Below are positions 2,172 to 38,253 of a DNA stretch of 64,000 nucleotides, piece by piece. The position numbers were made by a program, and so were the translations under genes. The stretch's first letter is position 1, and the number at the start of each line of letters is the position of its first letter. This DNA comes from an uncultured Candidatus Saccharibacteria bacterium (lineage in GTDB: Bacteria > Patescibacteriota > CAZHWT01). The notes beneath the pieces are model-generated. The model had not been told where the DNA came from. It did not search any database and was given only the letters and a program-made list of their open reading frames with translations. The DNA is taken from the NCBI GenBank assembly GCA_964554805.1, contig CAZKPX010000003.1:12366-76365 (forward strand), read 5' to 3'.

Positions 2172-2384
2172 GACTGATCCCCTTTGTGTGTGAGTCTCTC
2201 CCAGAAACAGGTCTGGTAGGTGGAATATATCATATATTCTTTGATTGCACCATATAATGTACTGGAGAATACAGGGGGCAGCGGGGGTATTTAAAGGTGG
2301 TTGTCAGTTGGGGGCTTTTCTGGTACAATCGGTCCTGCTAATCTCCACTATGGAGTGCGCTGGTGTGGAATATTTAGACTATTA

Positions 2385-2459
2385 GCTGAGGTAGCTCAGT
2401 GGCAGAGCACTTCCATGGTAAGGAAGGGGTCGCGAGTTCAATCCTCGCCCTCAGCTCCA
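2385..2459 (+). tRNA. tRNA-Thr (anticodon GGT), CCA encoded
   Basis: cloverleaf read by eye: acceptor GCTGAGG/CCTCAGC, anticodon stem CTTCC/GGAAG, loop ATGGTAA, T-loop TTCAATC, 3' TCCA. Confidence 0.9.
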
Positions 2460-2569
2460 GAAAAGAACAGTTTTCTGGCGGCTGGATGTCGCTTTGTGAC
2501 ATGCATCTCCAGAAGAAGCTGCGCTTCTTCAGTTAGAAGTGAACAGAAGAAGTAAGAAGTTATTTTTGG

Positions 2570-2657
2570 GCAGGGCTGGCGGAGCGGTCAATCGCATCAG
2601 ACTGTAAATCTGACGTCTTCACTGACTACGGAGGTTCGAATCCTTCGCCCTGCACCA
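2570..2657 (+). tRNA. tRNA-Tyr (anticodon GTA), class II long variable arm, CCA encoded
   Basis: acceptor GCAGGGC/GCCCTGC, anticodon loop CTGTAAA, long variable arm, T-loop GGTTCGAATCC, 3' ACCA; 88 nt. Confidence 0.9.
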
Positions 2658-2801
2658 AGGATTTTTTCTCAACCAAAGTTGAGGAAAGATCCTTGGTATA
2701 GTGGTAGAGGTGAGGATTTCTTTGAGATTCGCCGACTAGGAGAGTACTATTTGAACAACGATTCAAATAGTATGAACTAGGAGTCTGACCAACGGGAAGT
2801 A
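2642..2801 (+). repeat. structured element A (about 160 nt), beginning with the 21-nt tRNA-Tyr 3' end CCTTCGCCCTGCACCAAGGAT; two conserved hairpins
   Basis: hairpin 1 at 2655-2696 (CCAAGGA...TCCTTGG); hairpin 2 at 2746-2771 (ACTATTTGAA-CAACGA-TTCAAATAGT); same architecture as unit B. Confidence 0.5.
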
Positions 2802-2965
2802 CCTTCGCCCTGCACCAAGGATATTCTCCTAATCTTTGATTGGAAGAATATCCTTGGTATTGAGCTTAGATGCGAACCTTCAGGTTCGATGCAGAGGAAA
2901 GTGCTATTTGCACAACGATGCAAATAGTGCGAACTCTAGCCCGACTAAAGGGAGGCATCCTTCAA
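2802..2965 (+). repeat. structured element B, a tandem paralogue of unit A that begins with the same 21-nt CCTTCGCCCTGCACCAAGGAT
   Basis: hairpin 1 at 2815-2857 (13-bp perfect stem CCAAGGATATTCT/AGAATATCCTTGG); hairpin 2 at 2904-2927 (CTATTTGCA-CAACGA-TGCAAATAG); stems differ from unit A only by compensatory changes. Confidence 0.5.
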
Positions 2966-3040
2966 TACTATTAGATTGCCGCGCTGCGCTTCCGCCAGGG
3001 GGCGGACAGGCAGCAATGACGGTAATGGCACGTTATATGT

Positions 3041-3117
3041 GCTGACTTAGCTCAGCTGGTTAGAGCAGCTGTTTTGTAAACAGCAGGTCGGGGGTTCGAA
3101 TCCCTCAGTCAGCTCCA
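3041..3117 (+). tRNA. tRNA-Thr (anticodon TGT), CCA encoded
   Basis: acceptor GCTGACT/AGTCAGC, anticodon stem GCTGT/ACAGC, loop TTTGTAA, T-loop TTCGAAT. Confidence 0.9.
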
Positions 3118-3292
3118 GATTGACATCGGTTAATCTGTCGCTGGATGCGCCAGAGGCGCATGCATCTCCAGATTATTCTAGTAAACGTAAGTTAGGGTTT
3201 TGACTGAAGCGTTACATTTGTTTTGAAATTAGGTATGGATTCCGGGTCTAGTCCGGAATGACATGCAATATTATTTTGTAGGAGTCGTTATT

Positions 3293-3469
3293 ATGGCTAA
3301 GAAAACCAGCCGGGTAATTGTTATCATGGCTAGCCCAGATGGCAAGCAGACTTATACTACTACCAAGAATCGTCGCAACACCGAAAAGAAGCTTGTGCTA
3401 AACAAGTATTCTCCGACTGAGCGCAAAGTGGTAGCTTATAAGGAAGTAAAAGTTAAAAAGGGTAAGTAA
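3293..3469 (+). CDS. rpmG: 50S ribosomal protein L33
   Basis: MAKKTSRVIVIMASPDGKQTYTTTKNRRNTEKKLVLNKYSPTERKVVAYKEVKVKK matches the L33 signature (YTTTKN...EKL...KY.P); ribosome-binding site TAGGAG upstream. Confidence 0.85.
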   Translation: MAKKTSRVIVIMASPDGKQTYTTTKNRRNTEKKLVLNKYSPTERKVVAYKEVKVKKGK

Positions 3470-3561
3470 ATAAAGTAAGCGTGTCATTCTGAACTTGGTT
3501 CAGAATCTTGGTCTACCGACTTTGATCCTGAAACGAGTCCAGGATGACATCTAGCTTACAT

Positions 3562-3635
3562 AGGGGCGTAGGCTAGAGGTAAACCGGTGGTCTCCAAAAC
3601 CGCATTCGGGGGTTCGATTCCCTCCGCCCCTGCCA
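3562..3635 (+). tRNA. tRNA-Trp (anticodon CCA)
   Basis: acceptor AGGGGCG/CGCCCCT, anticodon stem GTGGT/ACCGC, loop CTCCAAA, T-arm GGGGGTTCGATTCCCTC; the D-stem carries one mismatch. Confidence 0.75.
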
Positions 3636-3636
3636 A

Positions 3637-3676
3637 AATAACTCGGTTAGCTTCGGCTAAGCGAGTTATTTTTGTT
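3637..3676 (+). terminator. rho-independent terminator after tRNA-Trp
   Basis: AATAACTCGGTTAGC-TTCG-GCTAAGCGAGTTATT followed by TTTTTG. Confidence 0.7.
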
Positions 3677-3908
3677 GTGGACGGTTGAATTGAGTTGTTT
3701 TGGTTGTAGAGTTAAGTGGGAGAGGGCAGTATTTTAGTGTCAGATCTTCACTAATCCCGATAGTTAGCCTCGATTTACTTTCCGAAAGTTGCAGCGAGCC
3801 TGTTGCGGCTGCGACAGGTTATCTCTTTGTGGTGGATGGTTGTTGCGGCAACTTTTGGTACAATGTAGTGCATATGAATTTACATAACGATTCGCCTAAA
3901 TAATACAG

Positions 3909-4790
3909 ATGGAAACTGAAACAAAGCAATTAATTGATGCTATCCGAACTACACCAATAGAGCAATTTGAGTTGAGAACGGAAGATGGAGCTCTCGAAAA
4001 TTTGCTTACGGATACTCTCGAAATTAGCATAGAGACTCTAACTGATGATGAGCGGAAAACATTATCACTACATTTTATTGGTCGAACGCACAGATCTGAT
4101 TTTGATCTAGCAGTATTTGAACAACTGAGAGATTTTCGACCCAATGTTATCATTCATGAGTGCTGCGCTGAGACCCTTAAGCAGCTCCAGAATGTTGAAC
4201 TAATACAGGCGTCTTCCGTACTATCATTACCAATTGAGCTAGCAATTCCCGAAAAGGTCGCACCTACATGGGTTCAAGCCGCGGCCCTGGATGTAAGTAT
4301 TAATGATATATCTGGCGTAAACACACTAATAAGAAGTTCACGTGCGCAACCATTGCTTCGCAAAATGGATTTAACATTGGAAGAGCTAGCTCGCCAAACC
4401 GGATTTGAATTTCCAACACGGAGAACATTTGGATACCACACAATAAACCTGCTTAAAAAGTTAGGTATTGATGATATACGAGATGTTCAGCAGACTCCCG
4501 ATCTTGAATCTGCACTAATAGCTGATGCGAACACTATACAGATACGTGATAATGCAATGGTTCTAGATATATCTCGGATCGCTGGGAACTTAAGAAGGAA
4601 GATGGTAGGTGGATTATTGAGGATTGCTGTTATATCAGGCAATGATCATGCTCAGTTTTTGCAAAAGGAAGTTGAAAAGAAGGGTATTGTGGCAACAAGA
4701 TATAGCATTGTTGACGAAATAGAGCCTCATCCGTTGGATACACGAATTTATGAATCTCTTACTATTATAAGAAATCAGTCCACGAGGTAA
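3909..4790 (+). CDS. hypothetical protein (293 aa), first gene of the AT-rich island
   Basis: long ORF with no recognisable motif; base composition lower in GC than the flanking core genes. Confidence 0.5.
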   Translation: METETKQLIDAIRTTPIEQFELRTEDGALENLLTDTLEISIETLTDDERKTLSLHFIGRTHRSDFDLAVFEQLRDFRPNVIIHECCAETLKQLQNVELIQASSVLSLPIELAIPEKVAPTWVQAAALDVSINDISGVNTLIRSSRAQPLLRKMDLTLEELARQTGFEFPTRRTFGYHTINLLKKLGIDDIRDVQQTPDLESALIADANTIQIRDNAMVLDISRIAGNLRRKMVGGLLRIAVISGNDHAQFLQKEVEKKGIVATRYSIVDEIEPHPLDTRIYESLTIIRNQSTR

Positions 4791-8043: not shown

Positions 8044-8315
8044 GTTTTAGGATATAGGAGTTAGAATATTGAATATGGTGGCGACGGGCGACGAGAACGA
8101 GCGACGGGATTATAATATCAAATCTGACACAGATGCTGCCTTGGTATTGCAATGAGGTAAGCAATCTGGTATAGTTGGTCTCGCTTGGTTAGGAACATGT
8201 TTGACTAGAGATAAGTATAGCATGTCTCGGCTGGGTAGTTCTATTTGAAAGCTGTTCTGAATAGATCCGGAAAATAAGTTGCGGATGACATTTTTTAGAA
8301 CGAATGGTAAACATT

Positions 8316-37218: not shown

Positions 37219-37815
37219 ATGTCTCTTGCCAAACCGATTGCTGATTTAATACATGAGCTGGAGAAATTGCCGGCTGTGGGACCGAAAAGTGCCCAAAGAT
37301 TGACGTACCATTTGCTGCGGGCGCCTCGGGATGAGGCTGAGCGGCTGGCTCGGGCTATTCTTGATGTGAAGGATAAAACTGTGGTCTGCCAGGTGTGTTT
37401 TAATATTTCTGATAGCTCGCCATGTGAGATTTGTACCAGTGAGAAACGGGATAAGACTAAGGTGTTTGTGGTGGAAGAGCCGTTGGATGTGGTCGCTTTG
37501 GAGAGGACTGAGGTTATTGATGGTGTCTACCACGTGTTGGGAGCAGCTTTGTCGCCTTTGAATAATATTGGGCCGAATGATTTGCGAATTAAAGAGTTGG
37601 AAGATCGGGTCAAGGAGCAGGGGATTACTGAAGTGATTGTGGCTACCAATCCGACCATGGAGGGTGAGGCAACTTCTCTTTATTTGGCTAAACTGTTGAA
37701 GCCGCATGGGGTAAAAATGACACGAATTGCCCGCGGGTTGCCGGTTGGCGGAGATTTGGAATATGCGGATCAGGTGACACTGGCCAGAGCGCTGCAGGGT
37801 AGGAGTGAGATTTAA
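37219..37815 (+). CDS. recR: recombination protein RecR
   Basis: zinc finger CQVCFNISDSSPCEIC and a Toprim domain. Confidence 0.9.
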   Translation: MSLAKPIADLIHELEKLPAVGPKSAQRLTYHLLRAPRDEAERLARAILDVKDKTVVCQVCFNISDSSPCEICTSEKRDKTKVFVVEEPLDVVALERTEVIDGVYHVLGAALSPLNNIGPNDLRIKELEDRVKEQGITEVIVATNPTMEGEATSLYLAKLLKPHGVKMTRIARGLPVGGDLEYADQVTLARALQGRSEI

Positions 37816-37905
37816 TTTTCGACCTTGGTCGTAATTATAGAGAAGGCTAGAGATTCGATGATAGTTCGAAGCTCTAGCCTGTGTTGTGATGAACAAAGGT
37901 AAGGA

Positions 37906-38253
37906 TTAGCTTACTTGTTCAAGTGCTGCAGAGATACTTTCTAGTTTTCCCCAAAGCAGATTGATCGATAAGGGGATATCGTTGTTGTTGCCGTGAGGCC
38001 GAACGATGAACTTTCGATAGGTGTTTTGTCTCCGAATGGTGACGCGGTAGGCTGGGCCACCGTTGGGTCGACCAAATTCCTGGCCATCCTGTCTGTTGAA
38101 GATGTTGGCCATGGAAATCAATTCGCCGATATCGGTCTGCAGTTCGACGGACAGGGCTTTCGACACAAGGCTGAAATACTCTGCATAATTGACCCCATTT
38201 CCTACTTCTTTATCGACGGTAATGGCCGACCATTGTGTGGCTGGCAGTCTCAT
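37906..38253 (-). CDS. hypothetical basic protein (115 aa)
   Basis: ORF; second gene of a two-gene minus-strand pair between recR and cysS. Confidence 0.4.
   Translation of the reverse strand: MRLPATQWSAITVDKEVGNGVNYAEYFSLVSKALSVELQTDIGELISMANIFNRQDGQEFGRPNGGPAYRVTIRRQNTYRKFIVRPHGNNNDIPLSINLLWGKLESISAALEQVS

Follow-up and report, generated by a model that had tools for sequence, protein, structure and literature searches.

The two tandem units of about 160 nt found between tRNA-Tyr and tRNA-Thr(TGT) are probably tRNA-linked repeats (TLR-type elements), in which a structured RNA would be transcribed together with the tRNAs and excised by the enzymes that form tRNA 3' ends. Their sequences place them in a conserved, previously undescribed family; the host is from a distant uncultured lineage, and its closest genome record bears the label Candidatus Saccharibacteria. 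The link to TLRs is one of architecture, not of demonstrable homology. The covariance model of RtT, the tyrT member of the class in Escherichia coli, gives no match, and the units are therefore best regarded as a separate family that shares the TLR design.

The units are embedded in a cluster of tRNA genes near one end of the window (the whole 64-kb stretch of DNA that was analysed), which is arranged as follows:

2301..2329, + strand, promoter-like site TTGTCA-17-TACAAT with TG, 5' of the tRNA cluster (consensus match)
2385..2459, + strand, tRNA-Thr(GGT) (ARAGORN, Rfam)
2570..2657, + strand, tRNA-Tyr(GTA), CCA encoded (ARAGORN, Rfam)
3041..3117, + strand, tRNA-Thr(TGT) (ARAGORN, Rfam)
3284..3469, + strand, rpmG (ribosomal protein L33)
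3562..3635, + strand, tRNA-Trp(CCA) (ARAGORN, Rfam)
3632..3680, + strand, hairpin starting in the tRNA-Trp CCA and followed by a U-tract (read from the sequence; a simple scan did not list it)

The tRNA genes are as placed by ARAGORN and Rfam, and tRNA-Thr(GGT), tRNA-Tyr, the two units and tRNA-Thr(TGT) lie where the initial annotation had put them. The site at 2301..2329 is a putative promoter by its match to the consensus, and the hairpin at 3632..3680 resembles an intrinsic terminator that is the probable end of the operon. The hairpins at tRNA-Tyr have no U-tract, the terminator-like hairpin being found only 3' of tRNA-Trp. The promoter-like site and the absent internal terminator support a predicted co-transcription of the units with the operon. 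A neighbouring ORF of 293 aa is an orphan, its sole match among 5.8 billion proteins being itself, and Logan contigs of the same organism end inside the tRNAs.

The position of the units had earlier been interpreted as the slot of a missing tRNA-Gly. This does not hold, as the relatives with a readable locus (L004, L020, L021, L023 and L024/L038) display the order Thr(GGT)-Tyr-Thr(TGT)-rpmG-Trp, neither tRNA-Gly nor tuf being present, and five spacers 3' of tRNA-Tyr measure just 10-75 nt. The units thus represent an insertion or an expansion rather than a replacement.

Both units begin with an identical 21-mer, CCTTCGCCCTGCACCAAGGAT, whose only two occurrences in the 64 kb are at 2642 and 2802 (0.01 expected). 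The 21 nt had been assigned entirely to the tRNA; their identity in both units stands, but only the first 16 nt are the tRNA-Tyr 3' end (T-stem 3' strand, acceptor 3' strand, A73 and CCA). The remaining AGGAT is a trailer, outside the tRNA, that makes the base of hairpin 1. The anatomy of the array is:

2642..2657, + strand, seed 1, the genuine tRNA-Tyr 3' end CCTTCGCCCTGCACCA
2654..2697, + strand, unit 1 hairpin 1, a 20-bp helix from A73-CCA (ACCAAGGAU...AUCCUUGGU) with no U-tract
2698..2801, + strand, unit 1 core, comprising GUAUAG, a weak GAxx/GAUUCG hairpin at about 2711-2731, P3, a GA-rich internal loop and hairpin 2
2736-2739 with 2777-2780, + strand, unit 1 stem P3
2744-2755 with 2762-2773, + strand, unit 1 hairpin 2, a 12-bp stem with loop CAACGA at 2756-2761
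2802..2817, + strand, seed 2, an exact copy of the last 16 nt of tRNA-Tyr
2814..2858, + strand, unit 2 hairpin 1, with 21 stacked positions, 20 of them paired, and one C.A mismatch
2859..2959, + strand, unit 2 core, comprising GUAUUG, a CGAACCU/AGGUUCG hairpin at 2873-2888, P3 and hairpin 2
2893-2896 with 2934-2937, + strand, unit 2 stem P3
2901-2912 with 2919-2930, + strand, unit 2 hairpin 2, a 12-bp stem with loop CAACGA at 2913-2918
2960..2975, + strand, seed 3, a degenerate third copy (CCTTCaatact...) in which only CCTTC is kept

Seed 2, located 160 nt past the original tRNA-Tyr 3' end, both closes unit 1 at its 3' end and opens unit 2, and its identity with seed 1 runs through AGGAT to 2822. 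This exact 16-nt copy at 2802 bears out the proposal that the elements are seeded by the tRNA-Tyr 3' end. The array amounts to about 2.1 units. Units 1 and 2 share about 75-80% identity, with small indels (z=14.6); Tandem Repeats Finder reported no repeat in the window because there are just two diverged copies. A coding reading was discarded, since the ORFs across the units are unconserved, no frame surviving the indels of 1 and 4 nt. A database look-up of an ORF inside unit 2 returned nothing on record.

Folded singly, each unit gives the same architecture, and units 1 and 2 are both much more stably folded than shuffles, with z values of -7.5 and -6.3, respectively. The upper halves of hairpin 1 differ between the two units with the pairing kept, G.U pairs included. 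The two copies of hairpin 2 differ by one A-U to C-G double change and by one-sided G.U changes, and the 4-bp stem flanking hairpin 2 contains two further double changes (CUAG/CUAG versus AGAG/CUCU). Within the window, the hairpin-2 motif is present just at the two unit sites. The common architecture and its compensatory changes, first pointed out for these two copies, are seen across nine distinct units from metagenomic contigs. In the alignment of these nine, which was fitted to the covariance model, 14 of the 22 core base pairs show double-sided changes, a number reached by none of 500 shuffles, and 91.8% of cells pair, compared with 74.7+-2.0 in shuffles and 23-42% in slid controls. From a plain MAFFT alignment, RNAalifold recovers just hairpin 1 plus the upper part of hairpin 2. 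G.U pairs exceed A.C pairs by 21 to 10, a ratio confounded by the G-over-C skew of the strand, which is strong in the window. The structure of the units is under selection. A new structured RNA was among the identities considered at the outset, and the Rfam run agrees with it, detecting tRNAs only and no family for the units at either gathering or permissive thresholds.

The units end in the 3' strand of a tRNA, and their core holds a T-loop-like motif, GGTTCG(A/C)T, as might be expected of decayed tandem duplicates of tRNA-Tyr, that is, pseudo-tRNAs in neutral evolution. This origin is extremely improbable, and covariation has already largely refuted it. ARAGORN and Rfam RF00005 detect just the four genuine tRNAs and none in the units, and tRNA-Tyr does not align convincingly with any part beyond the seed. 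Furthermore, the core is conserved and covarying where neutral spacers are unalignable: the cores of the window and of L023 align with z=8.4, whereas no alignment is obtained for the neighbouring tRNA spacers of this pair of genomes (z -1.4 and 0.4). The rpmG genes of these two genomes are about 71% identical. Finally, the same core is also present 3' of tRNA-Trp.

The family in the relatives comprises one unit 3' of tRNA-Tyr in L023, with a degenerate terminal copy, and homologous units 3' of tRNA-Trp in at least six other distinct relatives. A covariance model built from three tRNA-Tyr unit cores only, with the tRNA-derived bases excluded (R1), finds the tRNA-Trp units of L004 (E=1.6e-5) and L021 (8.5e-4), and model R2 adds those of L018 (4.5e-6), L037, L031 and L024. 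Weak R1 matches at window positions 37800-37906 and 8142-8218 were dismissed as chance, as they are gone with the better model R2. The homologues share the core structure and show compensatory changes in it. Among the six tRNA-Trp units, the 3' copy of the tRNA-Trp end is exact or near in four, which are about 160 nt long (L004; L021, equal to L015; L018; and L024, equal to L038 and L039), and decayed in two. Exact copies span at least 12 nt, and 18-19 nt by eye in L021 and L004. L023, L004, L021, L018 and L024 carry a single copy per locus and the window carries two plus a fragment. The array size by genome is 0.2, 1.2 or 2.1 units. The relatives' tRNA-Trp units are placed past a terminator-like hairpin, in L021 and L018 between two such hairpins, and may be transcribed by read-through only. 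Searches of a metagenome contig collection with the hairpin-2 motif and with a 25-mer from the tRNA-Tyr 3' end gave 0 matches each, and the lineage is apparently absent from that collection.

The conservation of the structure could also reflect a role in cis, in which the unit is a processing, folding or termination spacer that aids maturation of tRNA-Tyr and tRNA-Trp and the excised RNA is degraded. Hairpin 1 could then be a site for a double-strand-specific nuclease, a block to exonucleases or, after tRNA-Trp, a terminator. This possibility is unlikely on balance. In its favour, hairpin 1 (18-20 bp, its start always N73-CCA) follows essentially every tRNA-Trp in the lineage, with or without a unit, and there it carries a U-tract like that of an intrinsic terminator; it is also present 3' of the unit-bearing tRNA-Tyr genes and of some tRNA-Thr(TGT) genes. 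In addition, each of the two tRNA-Thr genes of the window is followed by a similar mini-repeat of 52-53 nt:

2460..2513, + strand, mini-repeat of about 52 nt 3' of tRNA-Thr(GGT)
3118..3172, + strand, second mini-repeat of about 53 nt 3' of tRNA-Thr(TGT), with the end CATCTCCAGAT

The first consists of a CCA-including hairpin and a 7-bp hairpin, followed by CATCTCCAGAA, which is a 10/11 copy of the tRNA-Thr(GGT) 3' end plus trailer (CAGCTCCAGAA). The second is its paralogue, and the 7-bp hairpin shows compensatory changes. However, most relatives mature their tRNA-Tyr with the unstructured spacer of 10-75 nt and no unit, and tRNA-Trp is matured without a unit in L020, in L033 and in the window, where, unlike in other relatives, no homologous unit lies 3' of the gene. 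The core is therefore dispensable for tRNA maturation, and yet it is kept with compensatory changes in two tRNA contexts.

At att sites in tRNA genes, and in cis-mobilizable remnants, a direct repeat of the tRNA 3' end flanks the inserted DNA. The units share this arrangement, and it had been suggested that they are serial integrative remnants (CIME-like). More generally, they could be a miniature, non-autonomous DNA element (CIME- or MITE-like) inserting at tRNA 3' ends by site-specific or homology-driven recombination, with duplication of the target and with the hairpins as protein-recognition sites on DNA. Compatible with such mobility are the patchy distribution, the presence of the same core at two tRNAs, each with its own 3' end, and the pair formed by a filled tRNA-Trp site in L021 and an empty one in L020, in which the L33 protein is identical. 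However, there is no integrase, transposase or other recombinase domain near the locus, either in the window, from about -3 to +10 kb, or on the relatives' contigs, and Pfam integrase and transposase domains are absent both from the window neighbours and from the relatives' contig gene tables. There are no extra copies in the 64 kb. Neither the hairpin-2 motif nor the 21-mer matched any of the viral contigs searched, and four viral matches to a degenerate family motif were rejected as chance, having no model match and no tRNA nearby. The repeats differ in length (11 and 16-21 nt), unlike the target duplications made by transposases, the arrays end in fractional units as unequal crossing-over predicts, every copy is co-oriented with its tRNA, and the helices tolerate G.U pairs. 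Unlike in att sites and their remnants, the insert is 160 nt long, gene-free and tandem with a fractional last copy, and it is a covarying structure kept with compensatory changes at two tRNAs where att sites decay. The idea of integration remnants thus finds no support, and a mobile DNA element in the broader sense is very unlikely.

The arrangement best matching the units was overlooked in the initial annotation, as the architecture is known in E. coli as tRNA-linked repeats, with RtT as the tyrT member. TLRs have been known there since 1978, the class having first been seen 3' of tyrT; the sources are reportedly Egan and Landy in 1978 and Rudd in 1999. A further source is the work of Stenum et al. 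(2021; PMC8144298). The last 18-19 bp of an E. coli TLR reproduce exactly the 3' end of the preceding tRNA or rRNA (PMC8144298). RrA, RrB and RrF are transcribed by read-through, with a 3' end that maps 3 nt past the repeat, and the authors propose that the repeat is a processing signal (PMC8144298). Except for these three rRNA-linked members, TLRs have "no known function," and the stringent-response claim of Bosl and Kersten (1991) is reported as retracted (PMC8144298).

The tyrT locus of E. coli, re-read here, has the same layout as the window units. Both kinds of element lie within tRNA or rRNA operons, directly 3' of a stable-RNA gene: the window units start within the tRNA-Tyr 3' end, and those of the relatives directly follow tRNA-Tyr or tRNA-Trp. 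In both, the repeat closes with some 16-19 nt copied from the 3' end of that gene, the copies after unit 2 and after the L023 unit being degenerate, and the unit size is about 160-178 nt. The copy number also falls within the one to five tandem copies per locus of the class, the last copy being fractional (3.14 in tyrT, about 2.1 in the window, 1.2 or 0.2 in relatives). Moreover, rrA/B/F lie between T1 and T2, just as the tRNA-Trp units of L021 and L018 lie between terminator-like hairpins. By contrast, the host here belongs to an uncultured lineage near Candidatus Saccharibacteria, the seed consists of 16 nt plus a common 5-nt trailer instead of 18-19 nt, the core contains a 12-bp hairpin with loop CAACGA, and every seed is followed by a CCA-including 20-bp hairpin that tyrT does not have.

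There is likewise no detectable sequence or covariance-model similarity to RtT RNA (RF00391; rttR, tyrT operon), the one TLR tested. RF00391 scores 133-138 bits on four E. coli copies, but it has no match in the window at gathering (45 bits) or at E<=10, and none at E<=5 in five relatives; conversely, R2 has no match at E. coli tyrT. RtT and the units are both linked to tRNA-Tyr and end in a copy of its 3' end (...CCA), and both include a GAACC-loop-GGUUCGA hairpin and GA-rich internal loops. The 5' segment of unit 1 can also pair with the 3' copy, as in stem P1 of RtT, and such a closing stem appears in the minimum free energy folds of unit 1, unit 2 and L023. It is not consistently supported across the family, as the cognate duplexes beat shuffles only weakly, in four to five of seven units (p=0.014-0.16 in five; no better than shuffles in L023 and L018). 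The missed gathering score and the absence of a tpr-like ORF set the units apart from RtT. The 3'ETS sRNAs (e.g., 3'ETS-leuZ; PMC8144298) are also comparable, as both would be by-products of tRNA-operon processing that can act as RNAs themselves, but their spacers are unrepeated and have no tRNA 3'-end copy.

Taken as TLR-type elements, the units can be given a possible pathway of transcription, processing and trans-acting function, read from sequence features. The region from tRNA-Thr(GGT) to tRNA-Trp would be transcribed as a single precursor, in which both units would present a common boundary signal made of the tRNA-Tyr acceptor/T-stem 3' strand, ACCA, AGGAU and hairpin 1. Because this signal is the same as that at the tRNA-Tyr 3' end, the nucleases that form this end would be expected to cut at the equivalent position past unit 1. 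The remainder would be freed by RNase P at the 5' end of tRNA-Thr(TGT), a step based on general tRNA biology, in which RNase P cuts tRNA 5' ends. This would yield one or two RNAs of about 160 nt, each consisting of the 20-bp hairpin 1 and the conserved core (GAAC..GGUUCG hairpin, P3, GA-rich internal loop and 12-bp hairpin 2 with loop CAACGA), and the unit 1 RNA would have a tRNA-like 3' end, ...GCACCA. Since the unit RNAs would be made 1:1 with the tRNAs, their level would follow transcription of the tRNA operon. The conserved loops suggest putative binding of a protein or another RNA. The size of the array most likely shifts by unequal recombination between the repeated modules of seed plus hairpin 1.

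The presence of the TLR hallmark in an independent family, which shows clear covariation, comes from a very distant uncultured lineage and has copies at two tRNAs, suggests that the design recurs for a reason, namely that a structured RNA makes use of the signal for 3'-end processing that belongs to the stable RNA preceding it. The family can also serve for comparative work on the roles of the repeated 3' end and of the core, on the origin of the units and on how their number changes. Annotators are cautioned by it against reading every repeated tRNA 3' end as an integration scar.

A broader proposal, which is improbable at present, is that TLR-type elements are a general class of possibly self-propagating structured RNAs that attach to stable-RNA genes by copying the 3'-terminal processing signal, and so perhaps no enterobacterial curiosity. 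As part of this proposal, the same core may have been transferred between two tRNAs with similar 3' ends, tRNA-Trp and tRNA-Tyr (CGCCCCTGCCA versus CGCCCTGCACCA), and there could be a dedicated copy-and-retarget mechanism acting via a recombinational or RNA-mediated intermediate. The core RNA could in that case act in trans in a bacterium with a reduced genome. At either tRNA, the core carries the 3' end of the local tRNA itself, and in L024 the 3' copy includes the local A variant of its tRNA.

The cluster from tRNA-Thr(GGT) to tRNA-Trp looks like a single operon, since a promoter-like site lies upstream and the sole terminator-like hairpin with a U-tract in the cluster follows tRNA-Trp.

Components of the cluster (tRNA genes concordant between ARAGORN and Rfam)
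2301-2329: promoter-like site
2385-2459, + strand: tRNA-Thr(GGT)
2570-2657, + strand: tRNA-Tyr(GTA)
3041-3117, + strand: tRNA-Thr(TGT)
3284-3469: rpmG (ribosomal protein L33), between tRNA-Thr(TGT) and tRNA-Trp
3562-3635, + strand: tRNA-Trp(CCA)
about 3632-3680: terminator-like hairpin with U-tract, after tRNA-Trp

Just 5' of tRNA-Trp (3518-3551) a hairpin is followed by GGAUGACA (GAUCCUGAAACGAGUCCAGGAUGACAUC), an arrangement that is kept in the related contig L004 (about 4447-4470) and may be a processing signal. Kindred motifs, ..CCGGAAUGACA and ..CCAGGAUGACA, precede rpmG in the window (3250-3265) and tRNA-Thr(TGT) in the related locus L023 (about 2704-2716). The operon is adjoined by a 293-aa ORF (3909-4790) with no match in Pfam or NCBIfam, whose sole match among 5.8 billion clustered proteins is itself.

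The gap between tRNA-Tyr and tRNA-Thr(TGT) contains two structured units opening with a common 21-mer, as the initial annotation had described. This 21-mer, CCTTCGCCCTGCACCAAGGAT, has two exact copies in 64 kb (2642 and 2802; 0.01 expected); its first 16 nt correspond to the tRNA-Tyr T-stem 3' strand, acceptor 3' strand, A73 and CCA, and the final 5 nt are trailer outside the tRNA. Identity between the units is about 75-80%, their alignment contains indels of 1 and 4 nt, and they fold far more stably than shuffled sequences (z of -7.5 and -6.3). Both contain a 20-bp hairpin 1, running from A73-CCA onward, and a 12-bp hairpin 2 with the loop CAACGA. The compensatory changes claimed between them are genuine, with two more in the 4-bp stem that flanks hairpin 2 (CUAG/CUAG vs AGAG/CUCU). 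Unit 1 and unit 2 share no conserved ORF. Since a degenerate third seed, CCTTCaatact, lies 3' of unit 2, the array amounts to about 2.1 units.

Relatives were gathered through L33 homologues and the contigs carrying them. The closest genome found by L33 is L004 (labelled Candidatus Saccharibacteria, 79% identity), and identical contigs were found in three metagenome runs only. All relatives with a long enough contig have the order Thr(GGT)-Tyr-Thr(TGT)-rpmG-Trp, and in all of these the locus lacks tRNA-Gly and tuf. From tRNA-Tyr to tRNA-Thr(TGT), the spacer measures 10 nt in L020, 27 nt in L024 and L038, 48 nt in L004, 75 nt in L021, L018 and L035, and 230 nt in L023, against 383 nt in the window. 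The proposal that the units occupy a tRNA-Gly slot is thus not upheld; given this gene order and the short spacers, the units are a lineage-specific insertion or expansion that replaced no gene. Logan contigs of the window's own organism (L001-L003, L013-L014) all end inside tRNA-Thr(GGT) or tRNA-Thr(TGT) (2421, 3060), so the unit region is missing from these assemblies. The breaks probably reflect near-identical tRNAs in co-occurring relatives, such as the single C/T difference from L004 at 3056.

Homologous units occur after two different tRNAs. L023 has a single clearly homologous unit 3' of tRNA-Tyr, which comprises a 20-bp hairpin 1 from ACCA, GUAUUG, a GAAC..GGGUUCG hairpin and CUAG-[12-bp hairpin 2]-CUAG, and ends in a degenerate tRNA 3'-end copy, CCTTCGCCCaGCg. 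When the last 12 nt of each tRNA were looked for downstream of that tRNA, the tRNA-Trp 3' end recurred, exactly or nearly so, 160-166 nt downstream in L004, L021 (duplicate L015), L018 and L024 (duplicates L038 and L039); the copy in L024 has the A variant of that lineage's own tRNA-Trp.

tRNA-Trp-linked units in related contigs
L004, 4674-4838: terminal copy exact
L021, 649-809: terminal copy exact
L018, 616-778: terminal copy off at 1-2 of 12 positions
L024, 1092-1257: terminal copy off at 1-2 of 12 positions
L037, 432-590: terminal copy decayed
L031, 587-800: terminal copy decayed; apparently an internal partial duplication

In L004, L021, L018 and L024 these units share the layout of the window units: a hairpin starting at CCA, GUAUG, a GAACC-loop-GGGUUCG(A/C)U hairpin, AGG with P3, and hairpin 2, whose loop CAACGA recurs in L021 and L024. 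Homology was assessed without the tRNA-derived bases, using a covariance model (R1) of the three tRNA-Tyr unit cores only, which picks up the units linked to tRNA-Trp in L004 (31 bits, E=1.6e-5) and in L021/L015/L016 (25 bits, 8.5e-4). A model from five units (R2) further matches those of L018 (4.5e-6), L037 (2.8e-4), L031 (0.019) and L024 (0.024). R2 has no other match in the 64-kb window, and none in E. coli tyrT or the included Dehalococcoidia, Gammaproteobacteria and Latescibacterota loci (L005-L009). Two weak R1 matches, at 37800-37906 (E=0.046) and 8142-8218 (E=0.23), disappear with R2 and are most likely chance; both start with CCTTGGT(C/A).

Pairing was assessed on nine distinct units over 22 pairs, with 500 column shuffles. 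In this alignment, which is itself fitted to R2, 91.8% of cells hold standard pairs, compared with 74.7±2.0 in the shuffles; 14 of the 22 pairs show double-sided changes, none of the five measures was reached by any shuffle (0/500), and pairing falls to 23-42% when the 3' partners are shifted 1-3 columns along. Double changes affect 10 of the 12 hairpin-2 pairs, and P3 alternates between U-A and G-C at one position and among A-U, C-G, G-C and G-U at another. Because the arms carry indels, RNAalifold on a plain MAFFT alignment recovers just hairpin 1 and the upper part of hairpin 2; free of any alignment, every unit folds alone into hairpin 2 and P3, with the GGUUCG hairpin added in most of them. 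An origin by decay of duplicated tRNA genes is very improbable, being all but ruled out by this covariation and by the tRNA-Trp-linked homologues. The cores of window unit 1 and the L023 unit are identical at 72 of 106 positions (z=8.4), whereas between these two genomes neither the Thr(GGT)-Tyr spacer nor the one from Thr(TGT) to rpmG can be aligned (z of -1.4 and 0.4), and rpmG is about 71% identical; the unit core is conserved where neutral DNA diverges. G.U pairs outnumber A.C mismatches (21 vs 10), which would favour an RNA of the same sense as the tRNAs but carries little weight, given how very strongly that strand is skewed towards G over C. In 2-kb windows this GC skew is uniformly positive over 1-64000, at +0.14 to +0.42, whichever strand the genes lie on, and implies an unusually large replication-strand asymmetry.

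That the units are purely cis-acting processing or termination spacers is unlikely. Such a role is plausible for hairpin 1, which is present behind almost all tRNA-Trp genes and certain tRNA-Thr genes, but it leaves the conserved core unexplained, since in close relatives the same tRNAs mature in the absence of that core. More doubtful still is the reading as a miniature DNA element, integrative or mobile. It would account for the flanking repeats, the two target tRNAs and the presence of filled and empty sites: tRNA-Trp has no unit in the window, L020 and L033, and L020 and L021, which encode an identical L33 protein, are an empty and a filled site bounded by direct repeats. Against it, no recombinase lies near the locus in the window or the relatives' contigs, the 64-kb window has no extra copies, viral matches are lacking, repeat lengths vary and terminal units are fractional. 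The original observation is confirmed. What stands of its interpretation is a structured element, probably at the level of RNA, with a tRNA 3' end as its seed; the tRNA-Gly slot is wrong and an integration remnant is unsupported.

The element is probably a variant of the tRNA-linked repeats (TLRs), a poorly understood kind already known. In E. coli, 22 TLRs occur over ten loci, one to five per locus; rrA, rrB and rrF lie between dual terminators and are made by transcriptional read-through, their RNAs bind Hfq and CsrA in vitro, and the RrB 3' end maps 3 nt beyond the repeat, which its authors proposed as a nuclease signal (PMC8144298). The other TLRs have no known function, and an early stringent-response claim for RtT was retracted (PMC8144298). 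On re-reading the E. coli tyrT/tyrV locus, 178-bp repeats were found downstream, each ending in the last 19 nt of tRNA-Tyr; RtT (RF00391) spans 130 nt up to ...AATCCTTCCCCCACCACCA and scores 133-138 bits for all four E. coli copies. The window units agree with TLRs in position, 3'-end hallmark and copy number, but RF00391 does not match them even at E<=10, so they are assigned to this kind of element but to a family of their own. They share with RtT a GAACC-loop-GGUUCGA hairpin and GA-rich internal loops, and a 5' segment of unit 1 can pair with the 3' copy; a closing stem of the RtT type is not consistently supported from unit to unit. The TLR kind is old; what is unexpected is that an independent family, supported by covariation and linked to two different tRNAs, exists in a lineage so distant and uncultured, and this opens TLR purpose and origin to comparative study.

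The putative precursor would span everything between the promoter-like site (2301) and the terminator that follows tRNA-Trp. Since unit 1 is bounded on both sides by an identical module (acceptor/T-stem 3' strand, ACCA, AGGAU, hairpin 1), the endo- and exonucleases forming the tRNA-Tyr 3' end should cut again after it, and RNase P at tRNA-Thr(TGT) would release the distal end. The predicted products are structured RNAs of about 160 nt, in amounts proportional to tRNA-operon transcription, and the conserved CAACGA loop and GGUUCG motif suggest a binding partner. The best explanation for array lengths of 0.2, 1.2 or 2.1 units is that the repeated modules recombine unequally, which is also the assumption for tyrT. 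The 3' ends of tRNA-Trp and tRNA-Tyr are similar (CGCCCCTGCCA vs CGCCCTGCACCA), and one may speculate that this similarity let a tRNA-Trp-linked unit enter the tRNA-Tyr site by recombination in the ancestry of the window's lineage and that of L023.

Downstream of tRNA-Thr(TGT), the 15-mer GAAGGGTGAGAACCT occurs in L024 (459-473), L038 (2789-2803), L025-L030 and L039. The identical 15 nt form part of the RtT repeat of E. coli tyrT-tyrV, within its conserved 5' region (minus strand of L036, 1165-1179). The RtT model has no match at these loci, and the identity may be chance (p about 0.04 by our own rough estimate) or a trace of deeper relatedness. In the window, mini-repeats of 52-53 nt that are absent from L004 lie 3' of both tRNA-Thr genes (2460-2513 and 3118-3172) and look like miniature TLR-type units. 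Each consists of a CCA-including hairpin, a 7-bp hairpin with compensatory changes (AUGUCGC..GUGACAU vs AUGCGCC..GGCGCAU) and CATGCATCTCCAGA, which over its final 10 nt agrees with the tRNA-Thr 3' end and trailer (CAGCTCCAGA) at 9 of 10 positions. After tRNA-Thr(TGT) in L020 (573-620), L021 (237-285) and L038 (2742-2790) there is an 18-19-bp hairpin, CCAAGGAUGAG...CUCAUCCUUGG, whose base is identical to CCAAGGAU...AUCCUUGG, the base of the window's hairpin 1.
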